A stretch of DNA of 23,729 bases from Amoebophrya sp. A120 (Eukaryota; Protista; Dinoflagellata): assembly GCA_905178155.1 (NCBI GenBank), contig CAJINV010000005.1:7847679-7871407 (forward strand), read 5' to 3'. The notes under the pieces were generated by a model. The model was given only the letters and a program-made list of their open reading frames with translations. It was not told the origin of the DNA and made no database searches. The stretch's first letter is position 1, and each line of letters starts with the position of its first letter. Below are positions 527 through 23,640 of the stretch, piece after piece. The position numbers were made by a program, and so were the translations under genes.

Positions 527-572
527 AAATCTGCATGACAACTCTGGGGTGGGGAGGTTTTTACAGATGATA
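527..572. mobile_element. Right end of a family-F introner-like element; left end not found
   Basis: AAATCTGCATGACAACTCTGGGGTGGGGAGGTTTTTACAGATGATA matches the right end of element 19079-19357. No matching ACTGT direct repeat next to a TAT was found to the left. Confidence 0.6.
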
Positions 573-3500
573 ACTGTCCACCTGCGCGGATTCGTCAAAG
601 TAAGCCGAGTGTAGAATCCCATAGGGATCCACGGTCAAACCGGGTAAATACCCCGGGCACACTCCCCGCCGCTGGCAGCACTGCTTTTCGTTCCGTATCC
701 TGTGCAAAAGTATCGCACTCGTATAAATGCAAGGCCTGCATTACAAATCTCTTTCTTAAGGTAAATCAGCATTGCAAATTTTATTTCTCATGCTGAGGAA
801 ATTTGTAATGCATTTGTACGAGTACGATACTTTTGCAATTCATATTCCGGATGCTATCGCAATTCCGGCTGACGCAGTTATTACTCGGTAACTTCGCGTC
901 TGCAGTGTTGCCGCCAACAAACCCGGAGGGTATTTCGTTGTTCTCTACAGCAGGGAACACGATCTGCGGTGGAAAATTGCTGACATCCAGCTTCTCTTGT
1001 CCAACTGTGACATAGTCGTGCTTCAGGTAATACGTGGTTTTGTAAACTCCGGCGTTCTGCAGGCGAACGGTAGCGGTACCCTGTGCCGAGGTAATCATCG
1101 AGGTCTCGACCGATTCTGCCGCGATGTATTCCCCGATTGGGATCATGTATGCAGCCAGTGCACAACTCCCCCTCCCCCGCATTTGTATAGCATGAACGGC
1201 AATACAAGCATCAGCAACAGTGCCGGTTTTGCATGGCAAATTTGCACTGGATTGTAGTGCTATTCGGGCTACCAGAACTCGTCATGCATAATAGTGACAG
1301 GAGGGAAAGCGTGGATTTGGTATTTTGCATGAGAAATGAGAACGAGGGGGAGTTGTGCACTGTCATATCATGCGCGCCCGACACTGAAACTCTTTCGGCC
1401 AGGCGAAAAACCCGATGGCGCAGGTGGGGATCTCGCAGCACTTATTGTGAGGAAAAATCCCCCCTCCCCATATTGAAAAAGCATCCGTCGGAAAATTTGT
1501 GATGCAGATTTGTGGCCACAAATCATTTTTGTCTTGCAAAAAGGCAAGCGCTGAGGGATGCGCCGCATTATGGATGCTATTTTTCATGCTGGGTGGCCAA
1601 CAGGGCAGGCGTTTCCAATGCTAAACAGCTAGACTCTTGCGCTCTTAAACACCTATAAGAATCTGGCCGCAATTCCTCACAGCAAGACAGACCTCATCTG
1701 TGTACGCAAATGCAGCATCAGACGTTTCCTTTTGATATGGGGAGGGGGGATTTTTCCTTTTGATAGCACTCCTTGGAGCCCTCGTGGAACCCCGTTTTCT
1801 ATCCTGAGCAAAAACGTCCCCACCCCATAGTTGTCACGCATTTCTGCATGCCAAACAAGTTTCTCATGCTGAGCCCTATGAGAAGCATTGTCTGTCCGTG
1901 TTTTGGAATTTGTCATGCTCGAACCAGCATGCTGTGCTAGATCTGTGATGCTTCTGAACTAGCTAAACAGGACTTTGCTACGAGGACAAGCTTGTCATGC
2001 CAAACAACCAAAGCTGGTTGAATTGTCTAGCAGGTTTCCCATCTTGACTCTGGTGTGGGGACGTTTTTCATCAGGATATTTCCGGGTACGGTGCCAGGTC
2101 TTCGCCGCTTTCCGGCAGACGCACGACGTGTGTCAAGTCTTCGATCGGCTGCCCGAACCCCTTTGACCGGCAATACAGCGTCGCGCGCGTCCAGCCAGGG
2201 GGATTGCTTGGGTATAAATGGGACTTGAAGAAGTCCCCGTGAGGAACGTCATTCACATTCCCGTTCACGGGGATGGTGTGGCCGTCCCCGGAAAATCCCA
2301 AAATGGCGGCGCCGGACTATCAAAATGAAAAATCCCCCCACCCCATATCAAAACGGAAATTTGTGATGCTGATTTGGGGCCACAAATCAGCTTTGTATTG
2401 CAGAGAGGCATTGCGGCCAGATCCCCAGGCTAGGTAGAGGCGCATGTGTCTAGCTGCTCAGCATGGCAAACGACTCCCCTTTAGGCCCAACAGCATGACA
2501 AATCGCTTCCATAATGGGGCGGAAGCTTCTGCCCTTGTCTTCTTGCAAGACAGATGTGATTTGTGACCTCAAATCCGCAACACAAATTTTTGGAAACATA
2601 CCTTTTCAATATGGGGAGGGGGGATTTTGCCTCTCAATACGGACTGCTCGGTGAAAACGTCGGTCAAGCCAGAGGCGTCGATGGCGTCGTACAAAAACAC
2701 GCCGTATGCATTGCAAGCATGTCTGGAACTGGAAAGATCATGGGACTTGTAATGCTAGTCCTACAATCCTGTAACTATCTGTATTGCGTGATCAACAAAA
2801 AGACGCCGATGCCCCCTTATGTCATCCAAAAGCACAGTTTCTCATCCGGGCTGCGCATGACGAGAAGGTGTTCCGCGAATACCTTGTCATGCTTGGCTGC
2901 ATTGGGAAGGATTTCAATCATCCACACTTCAGCATCACAAGTTTCCGGACCCAGACAACATATTTGCATTGGATACGCCGCCACACCGCAGCGGGTGCTG
3001 GCTGTCCGGGCCCTCCCGCCGGCAGCAGTTCTCGGGCGGTAGTTCGCGAAAAGGCTCGGCATGACTCGCCCCAGTTTCCGTGGACGGGTAGGTTCTGGTA
3101 ATAGGAGACCTTTCGCTCGCGTACCGGACAACGCCGTAGCCTTTTAAGCCACAATGGAATTCCTCGTCACTCAAATCGTTTGCGATGCTCCTGTATCAAA
3201 TGTAAAAATGTCTGGGTCTGGAAGAGTCATGCTGTTTTTGCATGACGCAGAAGGTCTGGCATGGAAGCTCTAGCATCACAGGTTTCGAGAAGCCTCCGCA
3301 ATGCCGAACCCGCATGAGAAATCGCCCATTTTGGTGACAGAATTGAGCAGCTTTTGCTACCTATGCATGAGAGATTTTTCTGTGTTCGAAAATGCGCATC
3401 ACAAGTTCGGATCCTTCCAGACCCAGACATTTTTGCATTTGATATCCGGTGGCAGTTGTCGATGCAGCCCCGGTATGCATTGCAAAAGTATCGTACTCGT

Positions 3501-6500
3501 AGTAATCGCAATTGTGCATGACAGATCGCCTTCCTGAGCTAAAACAGCATTACAAATGCCATCTTTCACGCTGAGGGAGTTTGTCATGCGATTTCTACTA
3601 GTACGATACTTTTGCAATGCATACCCGGACCTCCACCGGCTCGCCCTCGTCTTTGCACCACAGCTCTGCTTATCAAGTGCAAAAATGTCTGGGTCTGGAA
3701 GGATGCCACTTGTGATGCTACCTTTGGACTCTACATAAAATCTGTATTGCATGAACAGCAAAAGAGGTGTAATTTGTGCCACGCGGAGAGGGCATTTCTC
3801 ATGCGGTATGAGCATCAGAAAGCCCTCGCAAAATCTGTGATGCTGGGGCATGCATCACAGACCTCATGGGTTATGCAAAATCTGCATGACAAACTCCTGC
3901 ATTCTTCCAGACCCAGACACTTTTACAATCCATACCGCTTTGCCGTGAAAGCCGGGGGCGCAACCCAAATTTCCGTCGCTCCCAGGGGGGTCGTACCACT
4001 TATCTGCGGCGCCGAGCGTCCCCGGCTCAGCGGCAAAACCCGCAGTATCATCTGGGTACAGGTGTACGCTTTTCAGTGCGTTTTCTATCGTGAGGAAAAC
4101 TCCCCATAGCAAAACCGGACACTTCTGAAAATTTGCGATGCTGATTTGTGACCACGCGTCGTCTCTGTATTGCAAGAAGGCCAACCCAGAGACTCCGCCG
4201 CATTATGCAGGCGGCTTGTGATGCTATGGAGCCTACAGAGTAAACCTTTGCCGTGCTACGCGCCTACGTCAAAACCCTTCTACTTAGGCTTAGTATGGGC
4301 CTGCAGTCCTCTACTGCAAGACAGGCCTGATCTGTGTACGCAAATCCTGCATCAGACACTCCCTTTTGATATGGGGAGGGCGGATTTTTCCTTTTGATAT
4401 TTTCCCAGTGGATGTCGTAGGGAAACGAGGATTGTACCGTTAGGCCGGATATCAAATGCAAGAATGTCTGGGTCTGGAAGATTGGTAGGTTTGTCATGTT
4501 GGGAAGCTAAGGGCTGGGCGTCCCTGTCGTTCTCTAAATCTTAAAACGGTAGCCACTTACTCGACAAACTCTAGGTAGAATAAGTTTGGACAAAGTGATC
4601 ATGCAGGTTTTTCCATGACCCGCGCGGTCTGGCATCCACGGCCTAGCATGACAGGTTCTGTGAGATCTCTATCTTCATGCCTTTCCTGCATGAGAAACTG
4701 CCTCGAAACTTGTTCAAAAGTGCACCTCGTTTGGTAATTATGCAACGCAAATTTTTTCACGATCCAGATGTAGCATGACAAGTCACACTCTTCCAGACCC
4801 AGACATATTTGCAATGCATACCGGACGCGGCGCAGGTAACGGCTGCGAGTTTCTCCGGGGGCCGGCACCCCTTCACGCAGCACGAACGTTTGCAGTTTTC
4901 CTCGGTGTACAGCTGTTGCACCACCGCATTATTTTGTTGCTGCATCGCATTCAGGGGCCCGTAGCCGCACAAATGCTGCGCCGGCAGGTTCGGCGCGCGC
5001 AGGGGTTGGTACCAGGGGCCGAAGTTCGCGATGGGATCGTGCCCATTGGCAGGAGCATCGTGCCGGTCACACCCGTTGACAGTGAGGAAGTGTGTCGCGT
5101 CGCAACTCGCCCAACACACTTTCTGCTTGTCCGCCCCGTTTGGGTTGAGGTCAGCCAACCGGTAGTTGCCCCCGGCGCCCGCTGCGTTGCAGTTAAGACA
5201 GGCCTGCTGATAGGGTTTCCCCATTTCGTTGCACAAATCTTGATCCACGTCTCCGAGGACCGTGTTATCAGCTGCAAAAATGTGTGGGTCTGAAAGAATG
5301 CAACTTGTGATGCTGCATTTCGATTCCAAAACAATCTGTATTGCATGAGCAGCAAAGGAAATGTGATTTTTGGTACGCGGAGAGGGCCTTTGTCATGCGT
5401 AGTAGGCATCAAGATCAAGAAGCCCTCAAAAAAACTGTGATGCTAGGGCATGCATCACCGGCATCATAGCTCGCGCAAAACGCGCATGACAAGCCTAAGA
5501 ATCTTCCAGACCCAGACATTATACTTGCAATTGATACGTGTTGGTATTGGAAGATGTCAGATGCGACGCGTCGGTCCGCAGCGTGCAGTAGCACACCGGC
5601 TCGCAGTATCAAATGCAAAAGTGTCTGGGTCTGGAAACATGTGAACTTCTGATGCGTATTTGAGACCAGAAAAAAATCTGTCACGCATGGACCGCAAAAG
5701 TTGCTCACTTCTTGCCACCAAAAGAGGGAATTTGTCATGCGGGTTAGGCATCGCCTAACCTGCTCAAAACCTGTGTTGCTAGGACTTGCATGCTAGACCT
5801 TCTGTGTCATGCACAAACAGCTTCACACTTTTCCAGACCCAGACATATTTGCATTTGATACGCAGCCCCGCAGTTGGACCTTCTGGTTGGACCCGGAGCA
5901 GAGCAGCTGGGGAGCTTGTATAACCCGCTCAGGTGTTACAATCTCAAGCGTTACAATAGAATCTGAGATCAGATTTGTCTTGCCTGATGAGCATGACAGA
6001 CTTGCAGGGCGTTCCACTTTCTGCAATACAAAGTTCGACAGATTGTAGTGGGGTTTGGGGCTCTGGAACTTGTCATGCGCAATCCTGTGGGAGTAGGGTA
6101 GATCGTGCACTTCTTGCAACACAAATTCCAGATTCTATTGTAACGTTTGAGATTGTAACACCTGAGCGGGTTATAGCTTGCCCGGCCACTTTTTCCTTGT
6201 ACCCCTCGGCGCAGATAAGGTCAGAGTCGGGGACCCACCCGTCTTTGTCGGGCATATTGTCATGCTGTGTGAACCCGGGATAGGTCGATGGTTGCTGGTT
6301 CGTAGTCCGGGGCGAGCCGCTCTCTCGCAGAATGTTGTGCCACGCTTTGCTGGGTCTTGGGCGGTAGCCCACCCCGTCGTTCTCCAGCCACCGGTTGGTC
6401 GGCATGTTATTCGCGTCCAAATCCAGCCCATCGTCGCCCCCCAACCCGGGCCGGTAACAGCCGGCAATGCAGCATATCAAATGCAAATATGTCTGGGTCT

Positions 6501-9500
6501 GGAAGATTCCGAGCTTTGTCATGCAGTTTTTCCAAGCTCCACCAAGTTTGGAATGCAGCGCCTAGCATCACAGGTTCTGCAGCCCCTTGGTGATGCCTAT
6601 TCTACATGAAAAATGCCCTCTCAGCATGGCCAGAAGTGGGGACCTTTTGCAGGTCATGCAGCACAGATTTTTGTATGATCCGCAACATGCATAACAAGTT
6701 CGCATCCTTCCAAACCCAGACGTTTTTGCAGTTGATACAGCAACTGTCGTAGCAATTGTCCTCGTTATATGCTTGCTCGCTGCAATACACGTGCTCTGTG
6801 TAGGGATAGGTGGAGTAGTATCCTGAGTAAAAACGTACCCACACCAGAGTTGTAATGCAGATTTGCAAAGACAGGAAGACTTGTAATGCGCATGCGCATC
6901 CCCATGAGAGCCATTTCCAATCGTGTTTTGGAATTTGTGATGCTGTGAACAGGATGAGCAGATGAATCTGTGATGCGGCTGCACTTGCTAACCTGCACTA
7001 CACTGCAGAGCGCAACTTGTCATGCGTGACTCACAAAACTCCTAGGTTTGTGTTGCAAAATCCTCATCCTGACTCTGGTGTGGGTACGTTTTTACTCAGG
7101 ATAANGAGCGCAACTTGTCATGCGTGACTCACAAAACTCCTAGGTTTGTGTTGCAAAATCCTCATCCTGACTCTGGTGTGGGTACGTTTTTACTCAGGAT
7201 AAGTAGAAATATGCGCCCTCAGCAGTCGTGTCCCTCCGATGGCACCCGATGGAGTCGCATTTGGACCAGCACTATCAAATGCAAATATGTCTGGGTCTGG
7301 AAGGATGCAAGGTTTGTCATGCTTGTCTGGCATGACTGGAGAGTTTGTGACGCGTGTCCAAGAAAAGATAGAGACCCTTTTGCTTGTCATGCAAAACGCA
7401 GTGTTCGTCATGTGGAAAGCGCAACACTAAGCCGCGCAAATATTTCTCATGCTTGGCTGCGCATTACAGAGAGCTCACTATTCACAACTCAGCATTACAA
7501 GTTTACAGACCCAGACATATTTGCAATGCATAAGCACCGCTGCTCACCCGTGCTCCCGCCTGCCGTCGTCGGGTTTCCGACCTCTTGCGGGTCCGTTGCC
7601 GAAACCCAGGGACGTATGGGAGTTCCAGGACCGAAATCGACAAAATCGCAAAACTTGTAATGCGTAAAATGTAGGCCACGAGTAGCCTCTGTTAGGAGCA
7701 GGAAATAAATGAGACCCATTGCAGGCCTGTTTAGAGGAAGACGATTTCTTGCCAGAGTAGCACGACAGGAGCAGTCTTCTTTGCCCAAACAGCATGACAG
7801 ACTGGATTTTGGTGCTCCCGAAATTTGTCATGCGCCACTTGGAATAAACTGAGGCTTGTTCAACACAACTGGTATCGATTTTATGCATCACGAAGTATTT
7901 CGATTGTGTTGATTTCGGTCCTGACGCTTCCATAGGACGTAGCTCGTACTTCGTCACGTCGCTGCACACGGCGCAATACTGCTTGCCCGGACCCGGATAT
8001 CAACTGCAAATATGTCTGGGTCGGGAAGAATGTTTTGCTGTTTCCGCACGACACAGAAGGTCTGTCATGGATGGCCTAGCATCACAGATTTTGAGAACCT
8101 TCCGCAATGCCCAATCCGCATGACAAATCCTCCGTTTTTGGTGACAGGAGATGGGGATGGGCACCTTTTGCTGCCTATGCATGAGAGATTTATGTGTGTT
8201 GTGACATGCGCATCACAAATTCGCATCCTTCCAGACCCAGACATTTTTGTAGTTGATACCGGACAAATCGGATTGATTTTCTCCCCACTCGGAACCGCGT
8301 CCTTGAAAGTTTGGCGAAATCCAAGTCCAAACCCCACGCCCGGATAATGATATCCTATTTAAAAACGTCCCCACCCCATAGTTGTCTGTCATGCAGATTT
8401 GCATCAAGAGAAACATTTGCAATGCGCATCCGCATAAGAGGAATTTGTAGCCGTGTTCTGAGATTTCGATTTGTAATGCAGAAAACAGGAGAAGCAGGCG
8501 TCTTTGTGATGTGGCTGTCCTTTCTAAACAGAACTACACTACAGACGGAAGCTTGTCATGCACAACTCCCAAAACTTGGAGATTTGTATTGCAGATTTAC
8601 CAACTTGACTATCGGGTGGGGACGTTTTTCCTTAGGATAAATGATTCGCGATGCCCAGTGTCGTATCCTGACTCACGATGGTGGCTTGGTCCGCTGTGCA
8701 CTTGCAGGTGGGGATGCACCCGTAAGCTATAGCGTGTTCCCCGGGCCCGGGACAAATCAAATCCGGGGTGCCCGCATCGAGAAGGCTCTGGTCTGAGGTC
8801 TGGTGGTTCGCCGGATAGGCGCCGGCGTTTATGAGAGTGCACAACCCCCCCCTCCACCTCGTTTTACCAAAGGGAAAAACACAGGAAAGGGGGAAAATTC
8901 AAAATTTTGCAATGCCTCATTTTTGAGAGAGGTGAGAACCACACGCATGCGCATGGCCTTGGTGATTTGCGGCGGAATCGCAAACGCCAAAAAACCGCTT
9001 ACAACGTATCAAAAGACATACTACGTAGAACGCCTGCCCCCTGGCCTGTCTACAATTTGAAACAAAAGGCCCGCGCTTCGTTTTAAAATCATTGCCGGGC
9101 CCCAGGCGGCGCCGGGCTTCGGGCCAGGGGGCCGGCGCCATTTTCCGAAGCCCCAGGCCATGCCCAACACGAGCAAAACCTGGCCCGGGCGCTACCGCTT
9201 GGGGTGGCCAAAAATTGCAGTCGGGGCCAAGGCAGTTTTTGCCTTCTAGTCTACGGCGTGCGGCTTCGGGCCACTTTTGGGCCCGTTCCTGTGGATTTGA
9301 AATCCGTCCTATCTGCCCCGGTTTTCGGCCAAAATTGGCCGCGCCGCTGTCGCGTCCGGGGCTGCCTCCATTTCTGGGCATTCCTGTGGATTTGTAACCC
9401 GACCTATGTATGTGCCCCGGTTTTCGGCCAAAAAAAGGCCTCGCTTTTGGGGTCTTTTTGATGGCCCGTGCCGAGGGGGGGTGGCCCCAAGGGTACCCCC

Positions 9501-15500: not shown

Positions 15501-18500
15501 GCAGCACATTGCATACCCCTCAACAGGCTTACAATCGGTCTCATTTGCCTGCTCACCAATACAGGCCTCCAGTGCCCTACATTTCATGCATCACAAGTTT
15601 TTCGATTTTGTCGATTTCGATTCTGACACAACCATAGTACTGTCGCAGTTTATATTCGAAGGCCAGTTACTCCACGCGGGATGGCCGGACGAAGACTCCA
15701 CGCCGGGGTACGCGAAGTATCAAAATGAAAAATCCCCCCTCCCCATATCGAAAAGGAACCCCTAAGAGACTTCGCGATGGTGCTTATTTGTGACCACAAA
15801 TCGCGTCTGTCTTGCAAGAAAGCGCGTCTGTCTTGCAACATGGGCTCCGCCCCATTATGCAGGCGGTTTGCAATGCTGTTGGTCCTACAGCATAGACGTT
15901 CCCCATGCTAAGTGCCTAGGCCAAAACCTCTCTACATTGGCATGATACTGCAAGACAAATCTGATTTGTGTACACAAAGCCAGCGTCAAAAGTTTCGTTT
16001 TGATATGGGGAGAGGGATTTTTTCATTTTGATACTTTGTCGCCGCGCTTTACCAAATCATCCCAGGAGAACGGGGATGTCAGTTCGTACCCGTAGCTATC
16101 CGAGGGAGGTGTGCAACCTAGAATGCAGCACGTATCTTTGTCGTTGTTGGTCGTGCAGGCTTTCTTTGCGCAGTACCTCGAGGCGTGGTCGGTTCTCTTC
16201 ACGTAGTACCCGAGATCCCCGCACCAACTGAATCCGCTGCATGCTTGCTTGGCATCGCAGCACGTGTTTTGGTCTACGGAACCTGAACAACTCGCGCCCG
16301 CGCACTGGATATGGATGTGTCAGGATCGAAATCGCCAAAATCGAAAAGTTTGTGATGCATATAAATGCAAGGCACTGAAGGCCTGTATTGGGGAGCAGGC
16401 AAATGAGACCGATCGCAAGCCTGTTTAGGGGTATGCAATGTGCTGCCCGAGTAGCATAACAGGAGCGATCTTCTTTGCCCAAACAGCACGACAGACCGGA
16501 TTTGGGTGCTCCCGAAATTTGTCATGCGCCACTTGGAAACTGAGGCTCCAACTGACATCGATTTTGTGCATCGAAAATATTTCGATTTTGTCGATTTCAG
16601 TCCTGACACTCCCATACTGGATGCTGCTTGCGTTGTCTTTCAGCACGGTGCTCGCGCTTGGGTTGCACTGGTAGGTGGAGCAGTAGGCTCTTCCATCGCA
16701 GCAAGCGCTATGGTCGTCGGCCTCGGAGCATATGAGATTGCACAACATCACCTCCCCCCTCGTTTGTCTTTGTCATGCAAAATCCTATAATCCAGTTACA
16801 GCACTGTGGCTGTGGCAGTGTCTGCATGACAAATTTTTTCGAAGCCCGAACTGTACTGCAATTGCCGCACGAAGTTGTCATGCGCATGCGTCGGATCCAT
16901 GTGCCCTGTGGTTTCTATTGCTCCTCATCATCATGCCCTTCTTCAAATCAGGGGAACGCGGGGGAGTTCTTGTCGTGCAACACTCTCATACTGCAGGGGG
17001 TCGACTTACAGCGCGTTGAGCCTGCGTTGCTTTTCAGTGTGTACCCATTGTTACATGTCAGCGTCGAGCAAAATGTATGGAGAGAAAAAAGTTTGTCACA
17101 GTCACTAACTTGCAGGTTTTGCATTACAAATTTTCTTAGCATCACAAATTTTCCTTGTATTGCAGAAACACTAGGGAAATCCCCAATGAAGTTCGGCTGT
17201 GATGCATTTTTACGCATGACAAACACATTTGTATTGCAAAAATGCGCATCAGTGATCGTGACGAACTTTTTTTCTTTGATAAAATGCTGATTGTTCGCAA
17301 CACCGGTCCCGGTCCGCACTGACAGAGCAGGTTGTTCCCGCGCAGCGCACGTTAGCGACTCCGCTTTTTTTCGTATTCTGAGTAAAAACGTCCCCTCCCC
17401 AGAGTTGTCATGCAAATCTGCATGCCAGAAAAGTTTCTCATGCGGGGCTCCACGAGAAGCATTCTCTAATCTTCGCGTTGGGGAATTTGTGATGCTAGAA
17501 GCAGCACGATATTCGAGATTTGTCATGCGAAACAGCCGAAGCTGGTTGATTTGTGTAGCACATTTTGCATCTTAACTCTGGTGTGGGGACGATTTTACTC
17601 AGGATATTTCGCGTAGTAATTGGGGCAGGTGAGATATGCAATACAAATTTCCCGTACACGCACAAAATGCATGACAAATCTCGCTAACTTGGAGTGTCCA
17701 ATTTGTCATGCTGAGTAAGATTGGAGACAAGTTTTGTCATGCAGAGCCAGCATCTGTACGTCGTGTACAGGAAATTTACTACGGATATGAGATCGCTGCA
17801 CTTCGCCTTTTCCTCGCAGCACACCTTCTGGTCATCCGCGATGGCCCCGGGGTTGCAAGCATCGCCCTTGGACACGCACACCGGATTACCGCCTTTCGCG
17901 ACGTGCGTGCTGCTCGGACAGGCGGACGCAGCGCTGCATTTTTTCACGCAGCACGTGTTTTTATCACTTGCTTTGGTGCAGCTGTTTCCGGCACAGTAGG
18001 TTGTCCCTGTGGTGGCCTTCACGTAGTTGCTGGCATGTCCACACACCGTACTGATGTTGATTTGGCTGCACTTCTCGTGGCATCCTCGCAGCTGCATGTT
18101 TTGGTCAGCGCCTGGGCACATGTATTGCGGGGACTGTGCAACGTGTATCAAGTGCAAAAGTGTCTGGGTCTGGAAACTTGTAATGCTAAAAACGAATGAT
18201 AGACGCACTGCAATACGCAGCTATGCATGGCAAATTTTTTGGCTGCCATGTCTTACGTATTCCGCATGGCAAAGGCAAACGGCGTTTTTGCATGACAGGT
18301 AAGAGGGCTTTTTCGTGCCTATGCAACACAGATTCTCGAGTCATGCCAGACAAGCATGACAAACTTGCATTCTTCCAGACCCAGACAACATTTTTGCATT
18401 TGATAACGTGCGTGGTCTCGCAACTAAGTACGTTGTTGACGTTCTTCCAGTTCTCGTCGGGCCGGGCAGCTGTGTTCTTACCGTTAACCCAACTATCAAA

Positions 18501-21500
18501 TGCAAAAGTGTCTGGGTCTGGGAGATTCCGAGATTTGTCGTGCAGAATTTCGATGCCCCATAAGGTCTGGAATGCAGGACCTAGCATGGCAGATTCTGCG
18601 AGGTCTCTATCATGCCCTTCGTGCATGAGAATCTCCCTCGCATGGTGGTCAGACAAGGGCGACTTTTGGTGATTGCGCAAGACAGATTTTTGTGTGATCC
18701 ACAGGACGCATCACCAGTTCCATTTTTCCAGACCCAGACATATTTGCAATCCATACCAACCACGACACCGCAACTGGTTCCAATCGTCCCCGCTGCGACC
18801 GTATACAACTGTGCAGAAGTATCGTACTCGTAGTAATCGCAAGGATGCATTTTTTTCGTAAGGTAAATCCGCATGACAAATTCGAATTCCATTTGTCATG
18901 CTGAGCCCATTATTTCTATATGCAATTTATACTAGTACGCTACTTGTTTTGCAATTCATAGACCGTCAGAGCTCACCTTGTAGCCTTTTTTTGCACCCGC
19001 GCTCAGCGCTTTGCACTTCTTCAAACAGCACGTGGTCCTGTCCACGTCCTCCACGCACTGGTTGCCGGCGCAGACCTTTATCCTGAGTAAAAACGTCCCC
19101 ACCCCAGAGTCAAGATGAGGACTCTGCAACACAAACCTAGAAGTTTTGGGAGTCACGCATGACAAGTTCCAGTCCGTAGTGTAGTGCAGGTTGGCAAGGA
19201 TAGCCGCATTATAAATCCATCTGCTTATGCTGTTTCCAGCATCACAAATTCCTCTAAACGGTTGGAAATGCCTATCATGGGGATGCGCGTCACAAATGTT
19301 CCTGTCATTGCAAATCTGCATGACAACTCTGGGGTGGGGACGTTTTTACCCAGGATAACCTTGGACATGTCCTTAGTCGGCCAGTCCCACCCACACAGGC
19401 CGTCATCCGTTTGCATCAACAGCTGCTTTCGACACGTTGGGGTCATGATCAAATGCAAACATGTCTGGCTTTGGAAGTAGAATGCGTGTGTGTTTTGTCA
19501 TGCATCTTTTAGATCATGATGCAAATGGTCTCTAATGCACGCAAAAGCATCACAGGTTTTGCGCAGGCCTTTTGATGCCTTTCCCGCATGAGAAATTCCC
19601 TATCTCTCTGCGTAGTAAGAAAAAATTATACAATGGGCATCTACTTTTATTGGCGCTCATGCAATACAAATTTTTGCCTATTCCAGAATCCGCATCACAA
19701 GGTGCCACCTTCCAGACCCAGACATATTTGCCATGCATGGTCATGATCATGAAGTCCCGGTCCCCGGCGTTCCAGGGCGATTCAACGTCGATATCCGTCT
19801 TCTTCAACCAAACAAACGAGTCCGAGTATCAAATGCAAGTATGTCTCAGTCTGGAAGATGAATGTGAATCCAAGGTTTGTCATGCACCTTTTGCATGAGC
19901 ATGACCCATGATGTCTTGTCTATGATGCATGCCCGAGCATCACAAACTTTTTGAGGGCTACTATCTGATGCGTTTACCGCACGACAAATGCCCTCTCCGC
20001 GTGAGAGCACAAAGTCGACTCCTCTTGCCTTTCGTGCAAGAACACAGATTTTTTTAGAAACCGGGGACAGCATCAGAAGTTCAAGTTGCAGCCTGCTTCC
20101 AGACCCAGACATATTTGCATTTGATACGGAGGGCTTGAGAACCATGTGCGTGCACTCGTAGTATCCTGTGCAAAAGTATCGCACTCGTAGTAATTGCAAT
20201 CATGCACTACAAATTTTTTTCTTAAGGTGAATCCGCATATACAAATTTCATTTCTCATGCTGAGGGAATTTCTTGTCATGCATTTATATATACGAGTACT
20301 ATACTTTTGCGATTCATATGCCGCGATTTGCGCAGTCGAGGCGCGCACTTTGCCAGTTCGTATTGCCGTAGTTTATGGCGTTCCCTACGTTACATTCTCA
20401 ACTGTTGCATGGATTTGTCATGCAAGAATGGGAAAAGTGCAAGGGGGAAGATAAAGAAAAAGATTGCGCCTCTTGCATTACAGTTTTGGCTCAGATTTAG
20501 ATGCTGTTTAGCCCTTCGGAAAGTTGTCATATGAAGCAGCTTGATGATGTGGATGCTCATGAGAATTCTGCATGCCGAATCATGTAACAGTTGAGAATGT
20601 AACGTCTGAGAACGCCATATACCAGCGAAATTCATTACCGCCTTTATCCTCGTTCACCCGTCTCTCACAGTCTGGGTAGTTCCCGGTGTCGCAGGTCATT
20701 TTGCAGCCGAACAACCTTAACCTGCCGCCGCCACTTGGGCACTGGTATTGTGGATAGTTCCCCGAATCAGAAACTTGAGCCGAATGCGTTGGAAAGCACG
20801 ACAGCCTGGGGTGCCAAACTGTTTCGGACGCGTACGCGAACCCCGGGCGCAGCGCGTAAAATTCCCCCGGCTTGTAAAGCTTCTGGAACTCGGTTCCCGA
20901 CCGGTGCGCTGCGCGGCTACGGGGCTTGTCGGTGCCCGAGAGGGGCTTTACCAACCGGTAGCCTTTCTTCTCATCATTCGAGGGCTCCGTGCAGGCGGGC
21001 GTTTCGCAGCAGGTGTTCTTGTCACTAGCCGCGCAGGTGCCGCTCGCACATTTTTTCGACTCGTCGGTCGTCAGCCACTTGTCCGTGCCGCAGACTATGG
21101 AAGCGTCAGGTCTGAAATCGACAAACTTAAAATCATGACTTGCTATGCATAAAATGCGGGCAGGAAGTGCTTGTCTTGCCGGGATGGCAACGGCAAGTGA
21201 GGCCGATTATGAGCCTGTTTAGGGTTTGAAATGAAGCTGCTAAGTAAAGCAGCATGACAAAAGCAGGCTTCCGTGCCCCAAGAGCGTGACGCATTAGATT
21301 CCGGCGGTCGGAAAATTTGTCACGCGCTGCTTGATATTAACTGGGCTTCCGACTGGTACAAATGGTATCGGTTTTAATATGCATGACAACCTATTTCAAC
21401 TGTGACGAAGATTTCGATCCTGACACATCCATACAGACTGTAGTCGAGGTAAAGTAGAAAAGCTTTGGCGTCGGAAAGTAGGGCTGAGTACTGCTTTGCG

Positions 21501-23134
21501 CCGGATTGTCAAACCAGACGTCTCCCGAGTGGAGCACAGTTTCCTCTATGGCGTTCTCAATAGTTACATTCTCAGCTGTTACATGATTTCTCATGCGAAA
21601 TTACCTCAAGAATCGACACCATCAAGCTGCTTTGCATGACAAATTCTCGAGGAGCCAAACAGGCTGAGAATCTGTGCCAAATCTGTCATGCAAGACTCGC
21701 AAGGTCCTCCCCCCGTTCACTTTTTCTATTCTTGCGCCCCAAATTCATGTAACAGCTCAGAATGTAACAGTTGAGAACGCCATATCCTCTACGAAGTCGT
21801 TATGGAGCGCTATTTTGTTGATGCACACGCCATCCTCGTTGCTGTGGCGCACCCGCAGCGTGGTCACAAAGGTGCCCTGGAAAAGGAAAGTATCCGCGTC
21901 GGAAAAGGTCACATATTTCGTTTGCGACTTGCCGGTAAATTTCACGCTCTTCTGCGATTTTTCGCCCATTTCGTCCCACGCCCACACGTCTACGTTGGCT
22001 GCGGAGTCACTGTGAGCGACGCTGCAGCTGCGCAGCTCGACCACGAGCCCACCATATTGGCCCCCGCCCAAGAAGCCCCAGGCCCCCGCCGCCCCCGGGT
22101 TGCAGGAAGCAGGGACGAGGTTTGCGAGCATCTCTGCGTACTCGGTCGACGTCACGCAACACGTCGCTTTGTTTTGCGCCAGGAAGCCCGTGTCGTCGAT
22201 GGGAGAGCTGCAGAGGCTACTGTAGCAGGACCGGGCCCACGCGTTTGGTTTCCGGACCAGCCCCGCGCCGGCGCAATCGAAATCGCCACAGGAACAGGGA
22301 TAGTGCTTGTCCAAGTTGGAGTTGCCCACGTCGCAATATGTCGATTCCTTCTCTTTGATCGCCGTGCTGGGAGAGGTCGTCCAGCCATACCGATCGGGAC
22401 AGATATTTTCCATGTCGTAGCCGTCGCGGTCATAATGGCTCGTGCAGCCCCACCAGATCACGCTCCGCGATCGCGTTATGCATTCTTGCAAATATTTTTG
22501 TCGATCTAGGTCTGAAAATAAGTTGTGACGCATGGCAATGAATAGAAGCCACACAACTGTAAGTACTTATCTATGCACCTCCACCAAGTCGATGACGAAA
22601 CGCTTTTTTCGTAGCATGACTCCGTGTTCTTGCGTATTCAACGCATGACAAACAGCGTTTCTGCATGACAGAAAAGCGGTGGGCGAGCTCTTGCTGGCGT
22701 TGCAAAAATACAGAGCTCCTCAGTGTCGTGTGCCAACATGCCATACTATCTAGCATGACAAATCTCGTCGCATTCTTCCAGAGGACACAGATCGATAAGT
22801 ATGTGCAATGGATACGTGTTTGGGATAGACTTCCGGCACCGCACGTGTTTCTATAAATGAGTTGTCGTTCTGATTTATAGGTGGATTTGCAAAAGAACCA
22901 AAAACGGTAAAATGCGAAGGATTTACGAAGAAAACGGAACAAGAAAGACAAAGGAGAAAGACTACAACGGCAGCACGTATGAACAAGAACAAATCTATGT
23001 ACTGCGACAGCTCAGATCGCGAAAAGTCAAAAAACAAAATAGAAACTCAGTCCGGGGTAAAAATTCAAATATAGTACTGGAGGCAGGATTCCGCAGACCA
23101 GGAAGACCAGCTACCGTAGCACCAAGTGTAGTCT
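573..23134 (-). CDS. Giant multi-exon Cys-rich extracellular/adhesin-like protein (partial; about 52 exons, about 2,300 aa in window) with TSP1, PLAT/LH2-like, PAN/Apple and Cys-rich repeats
   Basis: Hand-splicing (remove each TAT...ATA element plus 5 nt) joins all inter-element segments into one open frame, e.g. CDSIRN|EKQCCQRRGVC, QCRARM|IPIGEY, GKA|ELWCKDEGEPVEVR|GCIDNC, EQRC|WSKCDSIGC, CSDL|TCPNYYAK|KSG. Only the ~12290-12815 junction is unresolved. The 5' end lies beyond 23134; the 3' end is either TAA at 563-561 or outside the window. Confidence 0.9.
696..844. mobile_element. Introner-like TIR element, family A (TGCAAAAGTATCGTACTCGTA TIR)
   Basis: TAT...ATA ends; DR TTCCG/TTCCG; removal restores the frame. 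Confidence 0.92.
845..1147 (-). CDS. Exon
   Basis: Core of ORF 781-1239: MIPIGEYIAAES...NNCVSRNCDSIRN, joining to EKQCCQRRGVCPG. Confidence 0.8.
1148..1367. mobile_element. Introner-like TIR element, family G (CAGTGCACAACTCCCCCTC TIR)
   Basis: TATG...CATA ends; DR TCATG/TCATG; removal eliminates an in-frame TGA. Confidence 0.92.
1443..1765. mobile_element. Introner-like TIR element, family B (AAAATCCCCCCTCCCCATAT TIR)
   Basis: TAT...ATA; DR GCACT/GCACT. Confidence 0.92.
1800..2078. mobile_element. Introner-like TIR element, family F (TATCCTGAG.AAAAACGTCCCCAC TIR)
   Basis: TAT...ATA; DR TTTTC/TTTCC (1 mismatch); only 5-nt removal keeps the Cys-rich frame. Confidence 0.88.
2079..2317 (-). 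CDS. Exon
   Basis: SGAAILGFSGDG...LAPYPE, joining (5-nt rule) to TGFHEGSKECCEIPTC. Confidence 0.8.
2318..2639. mobile_element. Introner-like element, family B
   Basis: TAT...ATA; DR CGGAC/CGGAC. Confidence 0.92.
2705..2975. mobile_element. Introner-like element, family C (TGCAAATATGTCTGGGTCTGGAA TIR)
   Basis: TAT...ATA; DR CGCCG/CGCCG. Confidence 0.92.
2976..3193 (-). CDS. Exon
   Basis: RSIANDLSDEEFHCGLKG...ENCCRREGPDSQHPLRCGG, joining to VFLYDAIDASG. Confidence 0.8.
3194..3444. mobile_element. Introner-like element, family C
   Basis: TATC...GATA; DR TCCTG/TCCGG (synonymous Arg difference). Confidence 0.9.
3474..3623. mobile_element. Introner-like element, family A
   Basis: TATGCATTGCAAAAGTATCGTACT TIR; DR CCCGG/CCCGG. 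Confidence 0.93.
3671..3934. mobile_element. Introner-like element, family C
   Basis: TAT...ATA; DR CTGCT/CCGCT (synonymous Ala difference). Confidence 0.9.
4086..4399. mobile_element. Introner-like element, family B
   Basis: TATC...GATA; DR TTTTC/TTTTC. Confidence 0.9.
4450..4820. mobile_element. Introner-like element, family C, with an internal ~100-bp insertion
   Basis: TAT...ATA; DR CCGGA/CCGGA; extra sequence at 4499-4598. Confidence 0.9.
4821..5265 (-). CDS. Exon
   Basis: Core of ORF 4757-5329: TVLGDVDQDLCNEMG...ENCKRSCCVKGCRPPEKLAAVTCAASG, joining to LTVQSSFPYDIHWEN. Confidence 0.85.
5266..5536. mobile_element. Introner-like element, family C
   Basis: TATCA...TGATA; DR CGTGT/CGTGT. 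Confidence 0.92.
5607..5860. mobile_element. Introner-like element, family C
   Basis: TATCAAATGCAAA TIR; DR CGCAG/CGCAG. Confidence 0.93.
5919..6175. mobile_element. Introner-like element, family D (long near-perfect TIR)
   Basis: TATAACCCGCTCAGGTGTTACAATCTCAA(G/A)CGTTACAATAGAATCTG at both ends; DR GCTTG/GCTTG. Confidence 0.94.
6176..6474 (-). CDS. Exon
   Basis: Core of ORF 6073-6522: CIAGCYRPGLGG...DLICAEGYKEKVAGQA, joining in frame to PQLLCSGSNQKVQLRGC. Confidence 0.85.
6475..6737. mobile_element. Introner-like element, family C
   Basis: TATCAA...TTGATA; DR CAGCA/CAGCA. Confidence 0.92.
6819..7201. mobile_element. Introner-like element, family F (true length about 285 bp; inflated by the gap duplication)
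   Basis: TATCCTGAGTAAAAACGTACCCACACCAGAGT TIR; DR AGTAG/AGTAG; N at 7105. Confidence 0.9.
7273..7532. mobile_element. Introner-like element, family C
   Basis: TAT...ATA; DR AGCAC/AGCAC. Confidence 0.92.
7615..7934. mobile_element. Introner-like element, family E (TATGG....TCAGGA.CGAAATCGACAAAATCG TIR)
   Basis: TATGG...CCATA; DR GGACG/GGACG. Confidence 0.92.
7998..8258. mobile_element. Introner-like element, family C
   Basis: TATCAACT...AGTTGATA; DR CCGGA/CCGGA. Confidence 0.92.
8351..8639. mobile_element. Introner-like element, family F
   Basis: TATCCTA...TAGGATA; DR AATGA/AATGA. Confidence 0.92.
8865..10211. mobile_element. Nested 1.35-kb TIR element (TAC...GTA ends)
   Basis: About 45-bp imperfect TIR TACCAA(A/GT)GGGAAAA(A)CAC(A/G)GGAAAGGGG.AAAATTCAAAATTTT; perfect 5-bp DR CGTTT at 8860-8864 and 10212-10216. 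Confidence 0.88.
9286..9627 (+). repeat. Dispersed ~95-125-bp spaced repeats inside the nested element
   Basis: TTCCTGTGGATTTG at 9286, 9381, 9508 and 9614; TGCCCCGGTTTTCGGCCAAAA occurs twice. Confidence 0.8.
10437..10749. mobile_element. Introner-like element, family B
   Basis: TATT...AATA; DR CGCAT/CGCAT. Confidence 0.92.
10815..10963. mobile_element. Introner-like element, family A
   Basis: TATCCTGTGCAAAAGTATCG TIR; DR ACTCG/ACTCG. Confidence 0.93.
10964..12285 (-). CDS. PAN/Apple domain split over exons ~12285-12229 and 11168-10964
   Basis: Spliced sequence GKPCILEEDKDMAHYDM(M/T)VGNIESEVACAALCAQEPLCKAVAWA...NECFLKDG shows the CxxxC...C...CxLK Apple/PAN pattern. Confidence 0.8.
11169..12228. 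mobile_element. Atypical 1.06-kb GC-rich intervening sequence interrupting the PAN domain
   Basis: TATG...CATA; DR GTCAT/ATCAT; recessed inverted repeat CAT(G/A)CTTTGTT..CGCCCCC at ~11198-11220 and ~12182-12200; the right end copies exon sequence. Confidence 0.7.
12291..12815 (-). other. AT-rich putative intron; boundaries unresolved
   Basis: The upstream frame (GYDISNWQNACETKKPSTPA) runs into a stop and coding resumes at AGKPCILEED. No TIR or DR pair was found. Confidence 0.5.
12931..13172. mobile_element. Introner-like element, family H (TATGGCGTTCTCAACTGTTAC TIR)
   Basis: TAT...GTA; DR CTGAA/CTGAA. Confidence 0.92.
13219..13374. mobile_element. Introner-like element, family A (inverted orientation)
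   Basis: TAT...ATA; DR AGGGA/AGGGA. Confidence 0.92.
13482..13766. mobile_element. Introner-like element, family C
   Basis: TAT...GTA; DR CATGA/CATGA. Confidence 0.9.
13795..13939. mobile_element. Introner-like element, family A
   Basis: TAT...ATA; DR TTGGC/TTGGC. Confidence 0.92.
14053..14307. mobile_element. Introner-like element, family C (right end ATT)
   Basis: TATC...GATT; DR CGACT/CGACT (extends to TTCGACT). Confidence 0.9.
14308..14625 (-). CDS. Exon, Cys-rich repeat
   Basis: Core of ORF 14154-14606: LAFWCPGSNQPLSVDSTSDCVPKCVCDNG...CPAPGAQNCKTCSR. Confidence 0.85.
14626..14848. mobile_element. Introner-like element, divergent family F
   Basis: TATC...GATA; DR GCGTG/GCGTG. Confidence 0.88.
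14907..15070. mobile_element. Degenerate family-A element
   Basis: TATGC...TGCAAAAGT / ACTTTTGCA...GCATA ends; DR CTCTC/CCCTG; removal gives CCVQGCTEP. Confidence 0.82.
15071..15330 (-). CDS. Exon, Cys-rich repeat
   Basis: Core of ORF 15022-15441: SAQFWCSGVNEPLSLRNCREKC...GRCCVQG. Confidence 0.85.
15331..15636. mobile_element. Introner-like element, family E (inverted relative to 7615 and 16310)
   Basis: TATGG...CCATA; degenerate DR GTTGC/GTACT; frame kept by 5-nt removal. Confidence 0.88.
15718..16033. mobile_element. Introner-like element, family B
   Basis: TATCAAAATGAAAAATCCC TIR; degenerate DR CGAAG/CTTTG; frame kept. Confidence 0.88.
16034..16309 (-). CDS. Exon, Cys-rich repeats (frame absent from the ORF track)
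   Basis: Hand translation: QCAGASCSGSVDQNTCCDAKQACSGFSWCGDLGYYVKRTDHASRYCAKKACTTNNDKDTCCILGCTPP... Confidence 0.88.
16310..16616. mobile_element. Introner-like element, family E
   Basis: TATGG...CCATA; DR CTGGA/CTGGA. Confidence 0.92.
16731..16990. mobile_element. Introner-like element, divergent family G
   Basis: TATGAGA...TCTCATA; DR GAGCA/CTGCA (either copy gives Cys-Ser). Confidence 0.86.
17076..17281. mobile_element. Introner-like element, singleton family I
   Basis: TAT...AGAAAAAAGTT(T/C)GTCAC TIR; DR AAATG/AAATG. Confidence 0.9.
17374..17606. mobile_element. Introner-like element, family F
   Basis: TAT...ATA; DR TTTCG/TTTCG. Confidence 0.92.
17635..17787. mobile_element. Introner-like element, singleton family J
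   Basis: TAT...AAATTTCC(C/T)GTACACG TIR; DR TGAGA/TGAGA. Confidence 0.9.
17788..18145 (-). CDS. Exon, Cys-rich repeats
   Basis: Core of ORF 17684-18208: QYMCPGADQNMQLRGCHEKC...YCAGNSCTKASDKNTCCVKKC...DDQKVCCEEKAKCSDL. Confidence 0.88.
18146..18405. mobile_element. Introner-like element, family C
   Basis: TATCAA...TTGATA; DR ACGTG/ACGTG. Confidence 0.92.
18494..18755. mobile_element. Introner-like element, family C
   Basis: TAT...ATA; DR CCAAC/CCAAC. Confidence 0.92.
18802..18960. mobile_element. Introner-like element, family A
   Basis: TAT...ATA; DR GACCG/GACCG. Confidence 0.9.
19079..19357. mobile_element. Introner-like element, family F (inverted relative to 1800 and 6819)
   Basis: TATCCTG.GTAAAAACGTCCCCACCCCAGAGT TIR; DR ACCTT/ACCTT. 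Confidence 0.93.
19447..19739. mobile_element. Family-C element with both terminal bases altered (GAT...ATG)
   Basis: DR GTCAT/GTCAT, effectively an 11-bp repeat GGTCATGATCA; frame kept (DFMIMT|PTCRK). Confidence 0.88.
19827..20126. mobile_element. Introner-like element, family C
   Basis: TATCAAATGCAA TIR; DR CCGAG/CGGAG (synonymous Ser difference). Confidence 0.9.
20162..20318. mobile_element. Introner-like element, family A
   Basis: TAT...ATA; degenerate DR CGTAG/TGCCG; frame kept. Confidence 0.86.
20374..20619. mobile_element. Introner-like element, family H
   Basis: TATGGCGTTC TIR; degenerate DR TAGTT/TACCA; frame kept. Confidence 0.86.
20620..21095 (-). CDS. Exon, Cys-rich repeat region
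   Basis: VCGTDKWLTTDESKKCASGTCAASDKNTCCETPAC...QYQCPSGGGRLRLFGCKMTC...FRWY; in frame with both neighbours after element removal. Confidence 0.85.
21096..21433. mobile_element. Introner-like element, divergent family E
   Basis: TATGGA...TCCATA; DR CAGAC/CAGAC. Confidence 0.9.
21547..21784. mobile_element. Introner-like element, family H
   Basis: TATGGCGTTCTCAA TIR; DR TCCTC/TCCTC. Confidence 0.93.
21785..22476 (-). CDS. Largest exon: Cys-rich segment followed by a PLAT/LH2-like domain
   Basis: Core of ORF 21757-22554. LVVELRSCSVAHSDSAANVDVWAWDEMGEKS...DTFLF...TTLRVRHSNEDGVCINKIAL, continuing after splicing to VLHSGDVWFDNP, resembles the PLAT pattern. Domain call made by eye. Confidence 0.65.
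22460..23134 (-). CDS. Exons encoding a thrombospondin type-1 (TSP1)-like motif
   Basis: Joining exons 23134-23074, 22851-22815 and 22476 downward gives CYGSWSSWSAESCLQYTCGAGSLSQTRSRSV, matching the WxxWxxC..TCGxG...RxR TSR signature. Confidence 0.8.
22477..22814. mobile_element. Introner-like element, divergent family C
   Basis: TAT...ATA; DR CGCGT/CGTGT (synonymous Thr difference). Confidence 0.86.
22852..23073. other. Decayed or minimal TATA...TATA intron without a family TIR
   Basis: DR GTTTC/GTACT; removal plus 5 nt joins WSSWSAESCLQY to TCGAG, completing the TSP1 motif. Confidence 0.75.
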
Positions 23135-23307
23135 TATGAGAGTGCAGCTGCCCAACTGGTCCCCCTCCCGCTCATTTGAAGCAGGGCATGAACAGCAAGA
23201 CAAGCGTCGGCAAGGATCCAGGTTTAGCACGACAAATTTGGACAACATGATTGTAGTGCTATTTACTGGGCTCTTACCGGAACTACCGGAGCCTGTCATG
23301 CATAATA
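23135..23307. mobile_element. Left part of a family-G element, interrupted near 23307
   Basis: Starts TATGAGAGTGCA and is colinear with 1148-1367 up to GTCATGCATAATA; the right end is outside the window. Confidence 0.75.
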
Positions 23308-23586: not shown

Positions 23587-23640
23587 GCGCCCCGGGTAGT
23601 TTTGCAAGCACCTTGCCCCGAAAGGCCTCACCTTGCGCCC

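Follow-up and report, generated by a model that had tools for sequence, protein, structure and literature searches.

TAT...ATA introners in a cysteine-rich gene of Amoebophrya sp. A120 and a proposal for their removal

An intriguing aspect of Amoebophrya is that non-GT-AG introns are removed in their tens of thousands while no U1 has been detected. That the genus carries non-GT-AG, MITE-derived introners is already published and is not a discovery of the present work; PMC7789003 and PMC12130899 describe genes with tens of introns having a TAT start, an A-run, a 5-bp direct repeat and a hairpin. According to the former, introns were called from RNA-seq junctions on a genome in which they are still present (Farhat et al. 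2021), those of A120 being backed by at least three reads; 35% of A120 introns keep GT-AG, canonical and non-canonical introns co-occur in the same genes, and the spliceosome includes U2, U4, U5, U6 and 83 of 89 proteins, U1 being undetected in A25 and A120. In the dataset rows of PMC12130899, roughly half of the ends in annotated A120 introner families are non-canonical. Titles and abstract openings of the literature found report no splicing mechanism or cut position for such introns. Here we analyze a window of 23,729 nucleotides of an A120 contig, in which a single gene provides a test-bed of 52 junctions, 16 of them with mismatched repeat copies that bear on the position of the cut.

A single reading frame across 52 insertions

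The first-pass annotation of this DNA had described a gene split by 50 elements in 696–23073, each removed precisely together with 5 nt. This core observation was confirmed by the reading frame, a chance test and the direct repeats, while a curated recount gave 51 TAT...ATA elements in the same interval and 52 with the addition of 486–572; a further family F member begins at 23135, beyond the 52. The features are as follows, with fractions giving the matching positions of the two copies of each direct repeat.

361..23134, minus strand: Cys-rich host gene; no stop in 2,311 codons once 52 elements plus 5 nt each are taken out
10965..11162, minus strand: PAN/apple domain exon (Pfam PF00024, E 2e-5)
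486..572: short family B element, 0/5; least certain junction
696..844: family C element, 5/5; RNA fold z -8.8
1148..1367: family F element, 5/5
1443..1765: family D element, 5/5
1800..2078: family B element, 4/5
2318..2639: family D element, orientation opposite to 1443, 5/5
2705..2975: BLAST singleton, A-like ends, 5/5
3194..3444: family A element, 4/5
3474..3623: family C element, 5/5
3671..3934: family A element, 4/5
4086..4399: family D element, 5/5
4450..4820: family A element, 5/5
5266..5536: family A element, 5/5
5607..5860: family A element, 5/5
5919..6175: singleton, 47-nt 98% inverted arms, 5/5
6475..6737: family A element, 5/5
6819..7201: family B element, 5/5; a 98-bp duplicate round the lone N at 7105, probably an overlap in the assembly, adds to its length
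7273..7532: member of an A-like cluster of three, 5/5
7615..7934: family E element, 5/5
7998..8258: family A element, 5/5
8351..8639: family B element, 5/5
8830..10403: family F element, 4/5; 222 nt without the nested insertion; 183/226 columns match 1148–1367
8865..10211: nested TAC...GTA element, 1,347 nt; inverted arms 39/44; own exact 5-bp repeat; sits in non-coding DNA
10437..10749: family D element, 5/5
10815..10963: family C element, 5/5
11169..12228: intervening 1,060 nt, TAT/ATA ends, 4/5; no inverted repeat; borders ambiguous
12291..12869: intervening sequence of 579 nt, 3/5; transcript sense reads TAT...GTA; no inverted repeat or family
12931..13172: family G element, TAC start in transcript sense, 5/5
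13219..13374: family C element, 5/5
13482..13766: family A element, TAC start in transcript sense, 5/5
13795..13939: family C element, 5/5
14053..14307: A-like cluster element, AAT start in transcript sense, 5/5
14626..14848: family B element, 5/5
14907..15070: old element, C-like ends, 3/5
15331..15636: family E element, 2/5; slides to GT-AG
15718..16033: family D element, 2/5
16310..16616: family E element, orientation opposite to 15331, 5/5
16731..16990: element with F-like ends, 3/5
17076..17281: singleton in the window, 5/5; 95% copy in metagenome locus L066
17374..17606: family B element, 5/5
17635..17787: singleton in the window, 5/5
18146..18405: A-like cluster element, 5/5
18494..18755: family A element, 5/5
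18802..18960: family C element, 5/5
19079..19357: family B element, 5/5; slides to GT-AG inside the repeat
19447..19739: family A element, CAT...ATC ends in transcript sense, 5/5
19827..20126: family A element, 4/5
20162..20318: family C element, 2/5
20374..20619: family G element, 2/5
21096..21433: family E element, 5/5
21547..21784: family G element, 5/5; contig piece from run X5 starts exactly at 21785
22477..22814: old element, A-like ends, 4/5
22852..23073: old element, weak arms, 2/5; slides to GT-AG
23135..23307: start of a family F element; likeness to 1148–1367 stops at 23307, likely at another insertion

Most elements are 145–371 nt long (median 262) and fall into eight multi-member BLAST clusters plus singletons, so that the earlier figure of about 10 families was a fair one; their density of 7.5 per kb of exon agrees with the roughly 7 per kb of CDS first estimated. 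Exact pairs of the form [5-bp DR]TAT...ATA[5-bp DR] spanning at most 500 nt occur 33 times, against 0–3 in each of 10 Markov simulations, and 29 times against 0 when at least 12 of 20 terminal bases also pair. Candidates at 22568–23073, overlapping 22477–22814, and at 10288–10366, inside the family F body, were dropped. The intervening sequence at 11169–12228 lies between two copies of a 35-nt stretch of exon (29/35).

Removal of each element plus k nt at all junctions leaves no stop for k=5, none for k=8 and one for k=2, whereas every other k within 0–8 leaves at least 39 stops in the best frame, and 2,000 random removals of 4, 5 or 6 nt always left at least 17. The restoration of one stop-free frame by exactly 5 nt thus holds across all 2,311 codons, with k=8 performing equally; since the frame fixes k modulo 3 only, the value of 5 is taken from the repeats, which are exact 5-mers in 36 of 52 elements. 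The encoded protein is 6.9% Cys and GC3 is 0.71. Nothing closes the frame before the element at 23135, and the 5' end of the gene was not located; the stop at 361–363 holds only if 486–572 is a real intron. A significant Pfam family was found in one of 13 exons, that being the PAN match listed above, in agreement with the PAN motif originally noticed. The W-x-x-W-S...R-x-R pattern joined across 22852–23073, recognized by eye and unscored, we take to be TSP1-like. Homologue searches with the one exon queried (21787–22470) found no relatives, an exact look-up of three window exons gave no match, and an Rfam scan of the window returned no RNA families.

Element ends and direct repeats in the window and in related loci

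An exact 6-, 7- or 8-mer repeat was found at none of the 52 elements, and the 16 degenerate repeats comprise seven at 4/5, three at 3/5, five at 2/5 and one at 0/5. Terminal inverted repeats are significant in 44 elements, the other eight being no better than shuffled arms; 11169–12228 and 12291–12869 have neither inverted repeat nor family. Only 6 of 312 terminal bases depart from TAT/ATA. The uniform architecture of direct repeat, TAT, inverted repeats, ATA and direct repeat initially ascribed to all elements therefore describes most of them, but not the 16 with degenerate direct repeats, the eight with insignificant arms or the six deviating bases. In the 5' arms, T1, A2 and T3 are present in 50, 52 and 50 of 52, and A occupies arm positions 11, 12 and 13 in 37, 38 and 44 (one start is offset by 2 nt). 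Twelve window elements combine family-like ends with decayed repeats; in these, mismatches affect 22 of 60 repeat bases and deviations none of 72 terminal bases. Repeats decay and ends do not, which supports the TAT/ATA ends, in preference to the direct repeats, as the signal under conservation. The elements also share an internal TGT[C/G/A]ATGC motif.

The same families were found in 134 metagenome loci at up to 95% identity, while the element-end pattern had no match among viral contigs. Of 338 homology-defined copies in these loci, 243 have an exact 5-mer repeat, one a 4-mer and none a 6-mer. TAT forms 636 of 676 element ends, with the TAT/A-run profile seen in the window; these terminal counts are overestimates, since each locus was picked by a pattern with one TAT end fixed and a BLAST match was required to extend to both ends, while mis-projected ends of family F copies inflate the non-TAT count. 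Family F was left out of the analysis of orientation and decay, which kept 315 of the 338 copies. Removal of element plus 5 nt joins Pfam-supported genes in related loci, among them SNF2, Nramp, cullin, Tpt1, adaptin and Rab. The best named match of an SNF2 exon in an element-sharing locus is from Amoebophrya sp. A25 (56% over 100%, E 2e-124), and no near-identical A120 protein is among the 120 matches listed for the SNF2 exon of locus L008. As the window exon queried has no known relative in the searches made, the taxon, judged by sequence, is indicated by the element families shared with these loci.

Insertions number 50 sense and 75 antisense, and positions 1–3, 9 and 11–13 are equally conserved at 5' and 3' ends. 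This suggests that either orientation is tolerated and that the signal has no polarity. In 29 copies without a spanning ORF, some of which may lie in genes missed by the ORF test, there were no terminal deviations and repeat decay was similar (0.097 per site), so that terminal conservation does not appear tied to coding context, a point that counts against the removal model proposed below.

On these features the window elements are almost certainly A120-type introners, and their ends and 5-bp repeats match those of PMC7789003, bearing out the original assignment to MITE-derived, non-canonical Amoebophrya introners. That paper describes A120 inverted repeats beginning with TAT, seven looser bases and AAA, as in the window; a 5-bp direct repeat (Fig. 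S19 legend); hairpin-forming repeated families without a transposase ORF, as the window elements also appear to be; a mean length of about 240 nt; and, as here, tens of introns per gene. The A120 TIR-DNA families of Gozashti et al. 2025 (PMC12130899) measure 149, 160, 208, 222, 252–260, 278, 305 and 319–322 nt, like those of the window. In contrast, the density here exceeds the 1.42 per kb genome-wide; PMC7789003 gives repeats of 3–5 nt and does not settle where the border falls, whereas the window repeat is uniformly 5 bp and its upstream copy appears exonic. Introners of A25 share the IR/DR organization, and their predominant TT-NN, a fixed start with a variable end, is in keeping with cutting where the element begins; however, their ends start TTA-R-R, they are shorter (mean 120 nt) and their families are strain-specific (PMC7789003).

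The repeat copy retained in the mRNA

Mismatched repeats allow the two copies to be distinguished. The 61 degenerate junctions among 230 oriented ones offer 101 sites; the codon is the commoner one with the upstream copy at 65 of these and with the downstream copy at 36 (p=0.005). Keeping the downstream copy creates two stops and keeping at least two upstream bases creates none. SNF2 homologues P0001 and P0002 require at least three upstream bases, AP-4 epsilon (9u9i_E) at least one, and at junction 14907 four other CCxxGC repeats of the window protein demand at least four. At repeat position 5 the split of 10 vs 7 says nothing on the copy kept, and position 3 taken by itself is even at 10 vs 10. 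Near the Rab and hydroxyacyl-CoA dehydrogenase junctions the query pieces were short or divergent; three PDB searches with them found no match, and both junctions were left uncounted. A test of AT drift in the intronic repeat copy was mixed by position (8:8, 11:3, 8:7, 6:6, 5:9) and was set aside. The data suggest that the upstream copy is very likely the one kept in the mRNA, a tendency that would set the 5' cut no more than about one base from TAT; sequence decay thereby yields a specific prediction for both the copy kept and the cut.

A model for removal and its rivals

The data presented above lead us to propose, with a probability of roughly 0.55, that pre-mRNA loses these MITE introners through a cut guided by the hairpin, the most likely agent being a re-tuned spliceosome that would act without U1. 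The hairpin would bring both element ends together, symmetric TAT-N7-AAA boxes would be read at each end, the 5' cut would coincide with the start of TAT or precede it by one base, and the 3' cut would lie 4–5 nt beyond ATA, the distance being fixed and the bases free; the downstream repeat copy would therefore leave with the intron. Removal at the RNA level is highly probable, while catalysis by a spliceosome, acting without U1, is only somewhat favored by the analysis. From the first-pass reading of MITEs acting as introns recognized through paired TAT/ATA termini, the MITE-derived identity and the conserved ends stand; RNA removal and the machinery we infer. To the published system the present work adds, also by inference, that repeats decay while ends persist, that the ends are symmetric and that the upstream copy tends to remain. 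Such a ruler, if it operates, would explain how a genome can tolerate, without limit, the insertion of one class of transposon into its genes. At least 10 of the first 30 nt pair with the last 45 in the predicted folds of 44 of 49 short elements. Two features fit less well with hairpin guidance: TAT and ATA pair directly in just 33 of the 49, and two intervening sequences lack an inverted repeat. It also counts against the model that no read or contig was seen to bridge a junction of this gene. Ends that are fully symmetric and a 3' dinucleotide without constraint sit poorly with a polar spliceosome and recall euglenid nonconventional introns (PMC11282704).

Those introns inform a possible, though less probable, account with the same elements and RNA-level removal, in which a spliceosome-independent, structure-guided endonuclease and a ligase make a staggered hairpin cut, as is suspected for euglenids. 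PMC11282704 describes euglenid nonconventional introns as non-GT-AG, with paired ends at some offset to their splice sites, repeats resembling TSDs, a probable MITE origin and an unresolved mechanism; they differ in lineage and end motif (CAG/CTG at +4–6 and -8 to -6), and their excised RNA was shown to be full-length circles. The absence of bias against either orientation, equally conserved ends, strong predicted end pairing, the arbitrary 3' dinucleotide and the failure to detect U1 in A25 or A120 (PMC7789003) are all consistent with such enzymes. Against them stand the nearly complete major spliceosome and the mixing of canonical and non-canonical introns in the same genes. A spliceosomal precedent is provided by Fritillaria borealis, whose MITE-derived, non-canonical introns have TIRs and TSDs and are reported as spliceosomal in the review PMC11282704, although AG-AC and AG-AT are preferred there, partly from exonic sequence. 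Two window junctions without a hairpin and the lack of a candidate enzyme also argue against the endonuclease and ligase.

Precise DNA excision from an expressed genome copy is improbable. Ciliate IESs are removed in this way, each with one repeat copy, which is the geometry observed here. A 199-nt contig from run X5 (depth 2.8) matches exon 21785–21911 without a difference and breaks exactly at the element edge, its first 72 letters being unplaced in the rows shown; that X5 is RNA is a guess. However, the window and the metagenome loci keep elements in coding genes, the introns of Farhat et al. were called by RNA-seq junctions against an element-retaining genome (PMC7789003), and RNA runs X6, X7 and X8 contain element-like sequence. 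On 7110–23300 these runs gave 24, 18 and 442 reads, all partial, mostly at 90–95% identity and confined to element-like stretches, making them uninformative on the host gene; the 15 joints examined of 31 all link element copies and none bridges a gene junction. A sequencing-run search with 13400–23000 had no RNA run among the matches listed. Conventional splicing through cryptic GT/GC-AG sites close to the ends, as in introners of Micromonas, Aureococcus and Polarella, is more improbable still. Sliding within the repeat yields GT-AG at four junctions (22852, 19079, 15331 and 486) and 30 of 52 have an in-frame GT/GC-AG pair within 15 nt, but 22 have none, 48 cannot slide to GT/GC-AG, and about half of the annotated A120 introner-family ends are non-canonical in the rows of PMC12130899. 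As the first-pass annotation stated for the junctions it checked, its two examples at 696 and 1148 cannot slide; the four are exceptions. A dead gene that merely gathered MITE insertions is hardly credible: host exons were unseen in raw runs X6–X8 on 7110–23300, possibly from another strain, and the exon queried had no homologue, but 2,311 codons across 52 insertions, some with decayed repeats, hold no stop or frameshift, and GC3 is 0.71.

Returning to hairpin-guided removal from pre-mRNA, we tentatively suggest that splicing here could be free of polarity, with one symmetric signal, TAT-N7-AAA and perhaps the internal motif, read on paired ends, and the 3' cut set by the 4–5-nt ruler beyond ATA, which would copy the 5-bp stagger of the transposase. 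The catalyst could be either a non-spliceosomal nuclease and ligase or a U1-less spliceosome branching at the A of the terminal ATA. In such a system, any 5-bp-duplicating insertion of these families would be scarless in either orientation.

A gene densely interrupted by likely introners

The window gene is a real, dense example of an already known system, carrying 7.5 elements per kb compared with 1.42 for A120 overall. Introners of A120 have inverted repeats that begin TAT + 7 nt + AAA and form hairpins, and are flanked by direct repeats of 3–5 nt (5 bp in the legend of Fig. S19); the paper leaves their border positions open (PMC7789003, Farhat et al. 2021). A120 families with terminal inverted repeats (TIRs), whose lengths match those of the window elements (among 21 of the 58 A120 dataset rows), and tens of introns per gene have been described (Gozashti et al. 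2025; PMC12130899), and such elements are restricted to part of the genus Amoebophrya (PMC12005148).

Across the window, short exons (58% GC) alternate with inserted elements (47% GC). A scan found 33 TAT...ATA pairs of at most 500 nt with an exact 5-bp repeat, against 0–3 in ten Markov simulations; addition of family members with decayed repeats gave 51 elements within 696-23073 and a 52nd at 486-572. As the first-pass annotation had proposed, removal of each element plus exactly 5 nt restores one minus-strand frame without a stop over 2,311 codons at 52 junctions (6.9% Cys, GC3 0.71). Removal of 2 or 8 nt disturbs the frame little or not at all (1 and 0 stops, respectively), every other length in the 0–8 range leaves at least 39 stops, and random choices of 4, 5 or 6 nt (n=2,000) always left at least 17. 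The stop counts therefore fix the removal length modulo 3; its value of 5 is set by the repeats, which include no exact 6- to 8-mer. The single architecture claimed for all elements stands, as regards an exact 5-bp repeat, at 36/52; the repeats of the other 16 are degenerate, terminal arm pairs of 8/52 score inside the shuffled range, and two elements lack an inverted repeat and a family:

11169-12228, element with no inverted repeat, assigned to no family
12291-12869, element with no inverted repeat, assigned to no family

At 11169-12228 an insertion of another type may have acquired its TAT/ATA ends, or may show them by chance; in-frame alternatives starting with GT exist further from its ends. 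A 98-bp tandem duplicate around a single N at 7105 (window 7007-7203), within element 6819-7201, is likely an unmerged contig overlap.

A Pfam scan of 13 exons gave one significant match, PAN, bearing out in one exon a motif noted in the first-pass annotation. The protein also contains repeated CCxxGC modules, short CC-ended repeats and a TSP1-like pattern. Its features suggest an adhesive, extracellular protein of the alveolate kind. Homologue searches, made with one window exon, detected no relatives. A 35-nt PAN-coding exon piece is duplicated (29/35) at 11140-11174 and 12202-12236, around a GC-rich 1-kb insert without inverted repeat.

Element families, target sites and conserved ends

BLAST yielded 8 multi-member clusters of 65–91% identity, with both orientations found. 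One family F copy contains a further insertion:

8865-10211, nested element with TAC...GTA ends, 1,347 nt, with its own exact 5-bp repeat

Taking it out leaves a 222-nt family F copy that matches element 1148-1367 in 183/226 columns. Because this insertion has its own 5-bp repeat in non-coding DNA, we infer that the repeat is a target-site duplication, whatever the coding context. The nested element is GC-rich (57%), contains ORFs and has arms matching at 39/44; it had no match within the metagenome loci analysed. The element starting at 23135 is broken by sequence unrelated to family F (23308-23729), with tandem repeats of 27 nt (6 copies) and 16 nt (5.6 copies) reaching the window end.

A pattern from one family end recovered at least 136 metagenome contig loci, and 134 records (463 kb) were analysed. 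Copies there reach 95% identity to window elements; the window's exons are not among the 134 records. Exact repeats of 5 bp flank 243 of 338 homology-defined copies, with 4 bp at one and 6 bp at none, and TAT stands at 636/676 copy ends, a figure inflated because the search pattern already demanded one such end in every locus. Applied to the loci, the +5 rule links up the exons of genes for SNF2, Nramp, cullin, Tpt1, adaptin and Rab (the Pfam scan covered 133/247 exons). An SNF2 exon had its two best matches in EukProt and in Amoebophrya sp. A25, the latter at 56% along the full query (E 2e-124); all others lay far behind, at E 2e-69 or weaker. The window's probable taxon thus follows from the element families that it shares with these loci, given that the single exon used as query had no detected relatives.

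An internal 8-mer, TGT[C/G/A]ATGC, is common in either orientation to otherwise unrelated families (window 486-23073; loci L001-L136). Window elements (15.6 kb) contain 120 sites, spread over 45/52 of them, and window exons (7.1 kb) a single one; in the loci, called elements (112 kb) contain 1,333 and the sequence outside them (351 kb) 330. The motif, absent from the examined text of PMC7789003, may be where a single transposase or splicing factor shared by the families binds.

Window mismatches affect 33/260 repeat sites and 6/312 sites of the TAT/ATA ends; the values are 22/60 and 0/72 for the 12 elements whose repeats have decayed and whose ends resemble those of a family. Arm positions 1–3, 9 and 11–13 in the loci are equally conserved at transcript 5' and 3' ends, and insertions are 50 sense and 75 antisense. 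Locus copies without a spanning ORF (n=29), though they may sit in genes that the ORF test missed, show no terminal changes, which counts against a simple splicing explanation of end conservation. Of 49 short elements, 44 have paired ends in the predicted fold, and in 33 TAT pairs directly with ATA; one example element gave a fold z of −8.8.

Position of the cut

Identical repeat copies hide the cut position. Direct-repeat copies (upstream and downstream in transcript sense) are mismatched at 61 of 230 oriented junctions from window and loci; mismatches were masked for frame choice, and some short ORFs may be misframed. The commoner codon comes from the upstream copy at 65/101 sites (p=0.005; 55/84 at positions 1–4, 10/17 at position 5). 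If the downstream copy is retained, 2 stops arise; with at least 2 upstream bases retained there are none. SNF2 homologues require at least 3 upstream bases and AP-4 epsilon at least 1; at element 14907-15070 the protein's own CCxxGC repeats (four other copies) require at least 4. Together these constraints indicate that the intron most likely starts at TAT or one base before and ends 4–5 nt beyond ATA.

Insertion phase at TAT is uneven across the 230 junctions (102, 73 and 55 in phases 1, 2 and 0; p=0.0007), which could reflect target preference or the true cut position. Intron phases usually follow the order 0>1>2, and a cut one base before TAT would bring the counts into it. This order is a weak hint favouring that cut, as is the T in second position of each of the nine predominant motifs that Table S4 gives for A120, possibly an aligner effect (PMC7789003); a Tyr-Glu pair in the repeats at 12291-12869 hints weakly at TAT itself. 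The cut geometry may already be visible in the sequence logos of that paper (Fig. 3 and Figs S19–S25). The window gene makes both cut position and mechanism directly testable.

Proposed mechanism of removal

The raw RNA runs (X6–X8) left the exons of 7110-23300 uncovered, and none of the joints listed bridged a junction. One contig from X5, a set guessed to be RNA, matches an exon exactly and stops where that exon meets an element, as might be expected of a form lacking the element. The open frame and published RNA-seq support for the class argue for removal from RNA; precise excision from DNA is improbable, and a pseudogene, set against the same open frame, is the least probable reading of all. 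Cryptic GT-AG splicing is scarcely more credible than the latter: sliding within the repeat yields GT-AG at only 4/52 junctions, and 22/52 lack any in-frame GT/GC-AG pair inside 15 nt.

None of the papers listed in literature searches reports the removal mechanism. Most likely the paired ends would present two symmetric boxes, the 5' cut falling where the element begins and the 3' cut a set number of bases past ATA. A re-tuned major spliceosome probably performs the removal, at somewhat better than even odds (about 0.55). It is favoured because A25 and A120 retain U2, U4 and U6 (U5 in A120 only; U1 undetected), 83/89 spliceosome proteins and 35–40% canonical introns (PMC7789003), and because Fritillaria, reviewed with the euglenid cases in PMC11282704, offers a precedent. 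The absence of polarity in the TAT...ATA ends would suit a non-spliceosomal nuclease and ligase, as suspected for euglenids, a tentative and distinctly less probable explanation. One gene in the loci would be pertinent only if that explanation were true, its product being an enzyme of tRNA-type ligation:

L051 (metagenome contig locus):2837-4400, minus strand, Tpt1/KptA RNA 2'-phosphotransferase gene (PF01885), interrupted by three TAT...ATA elements
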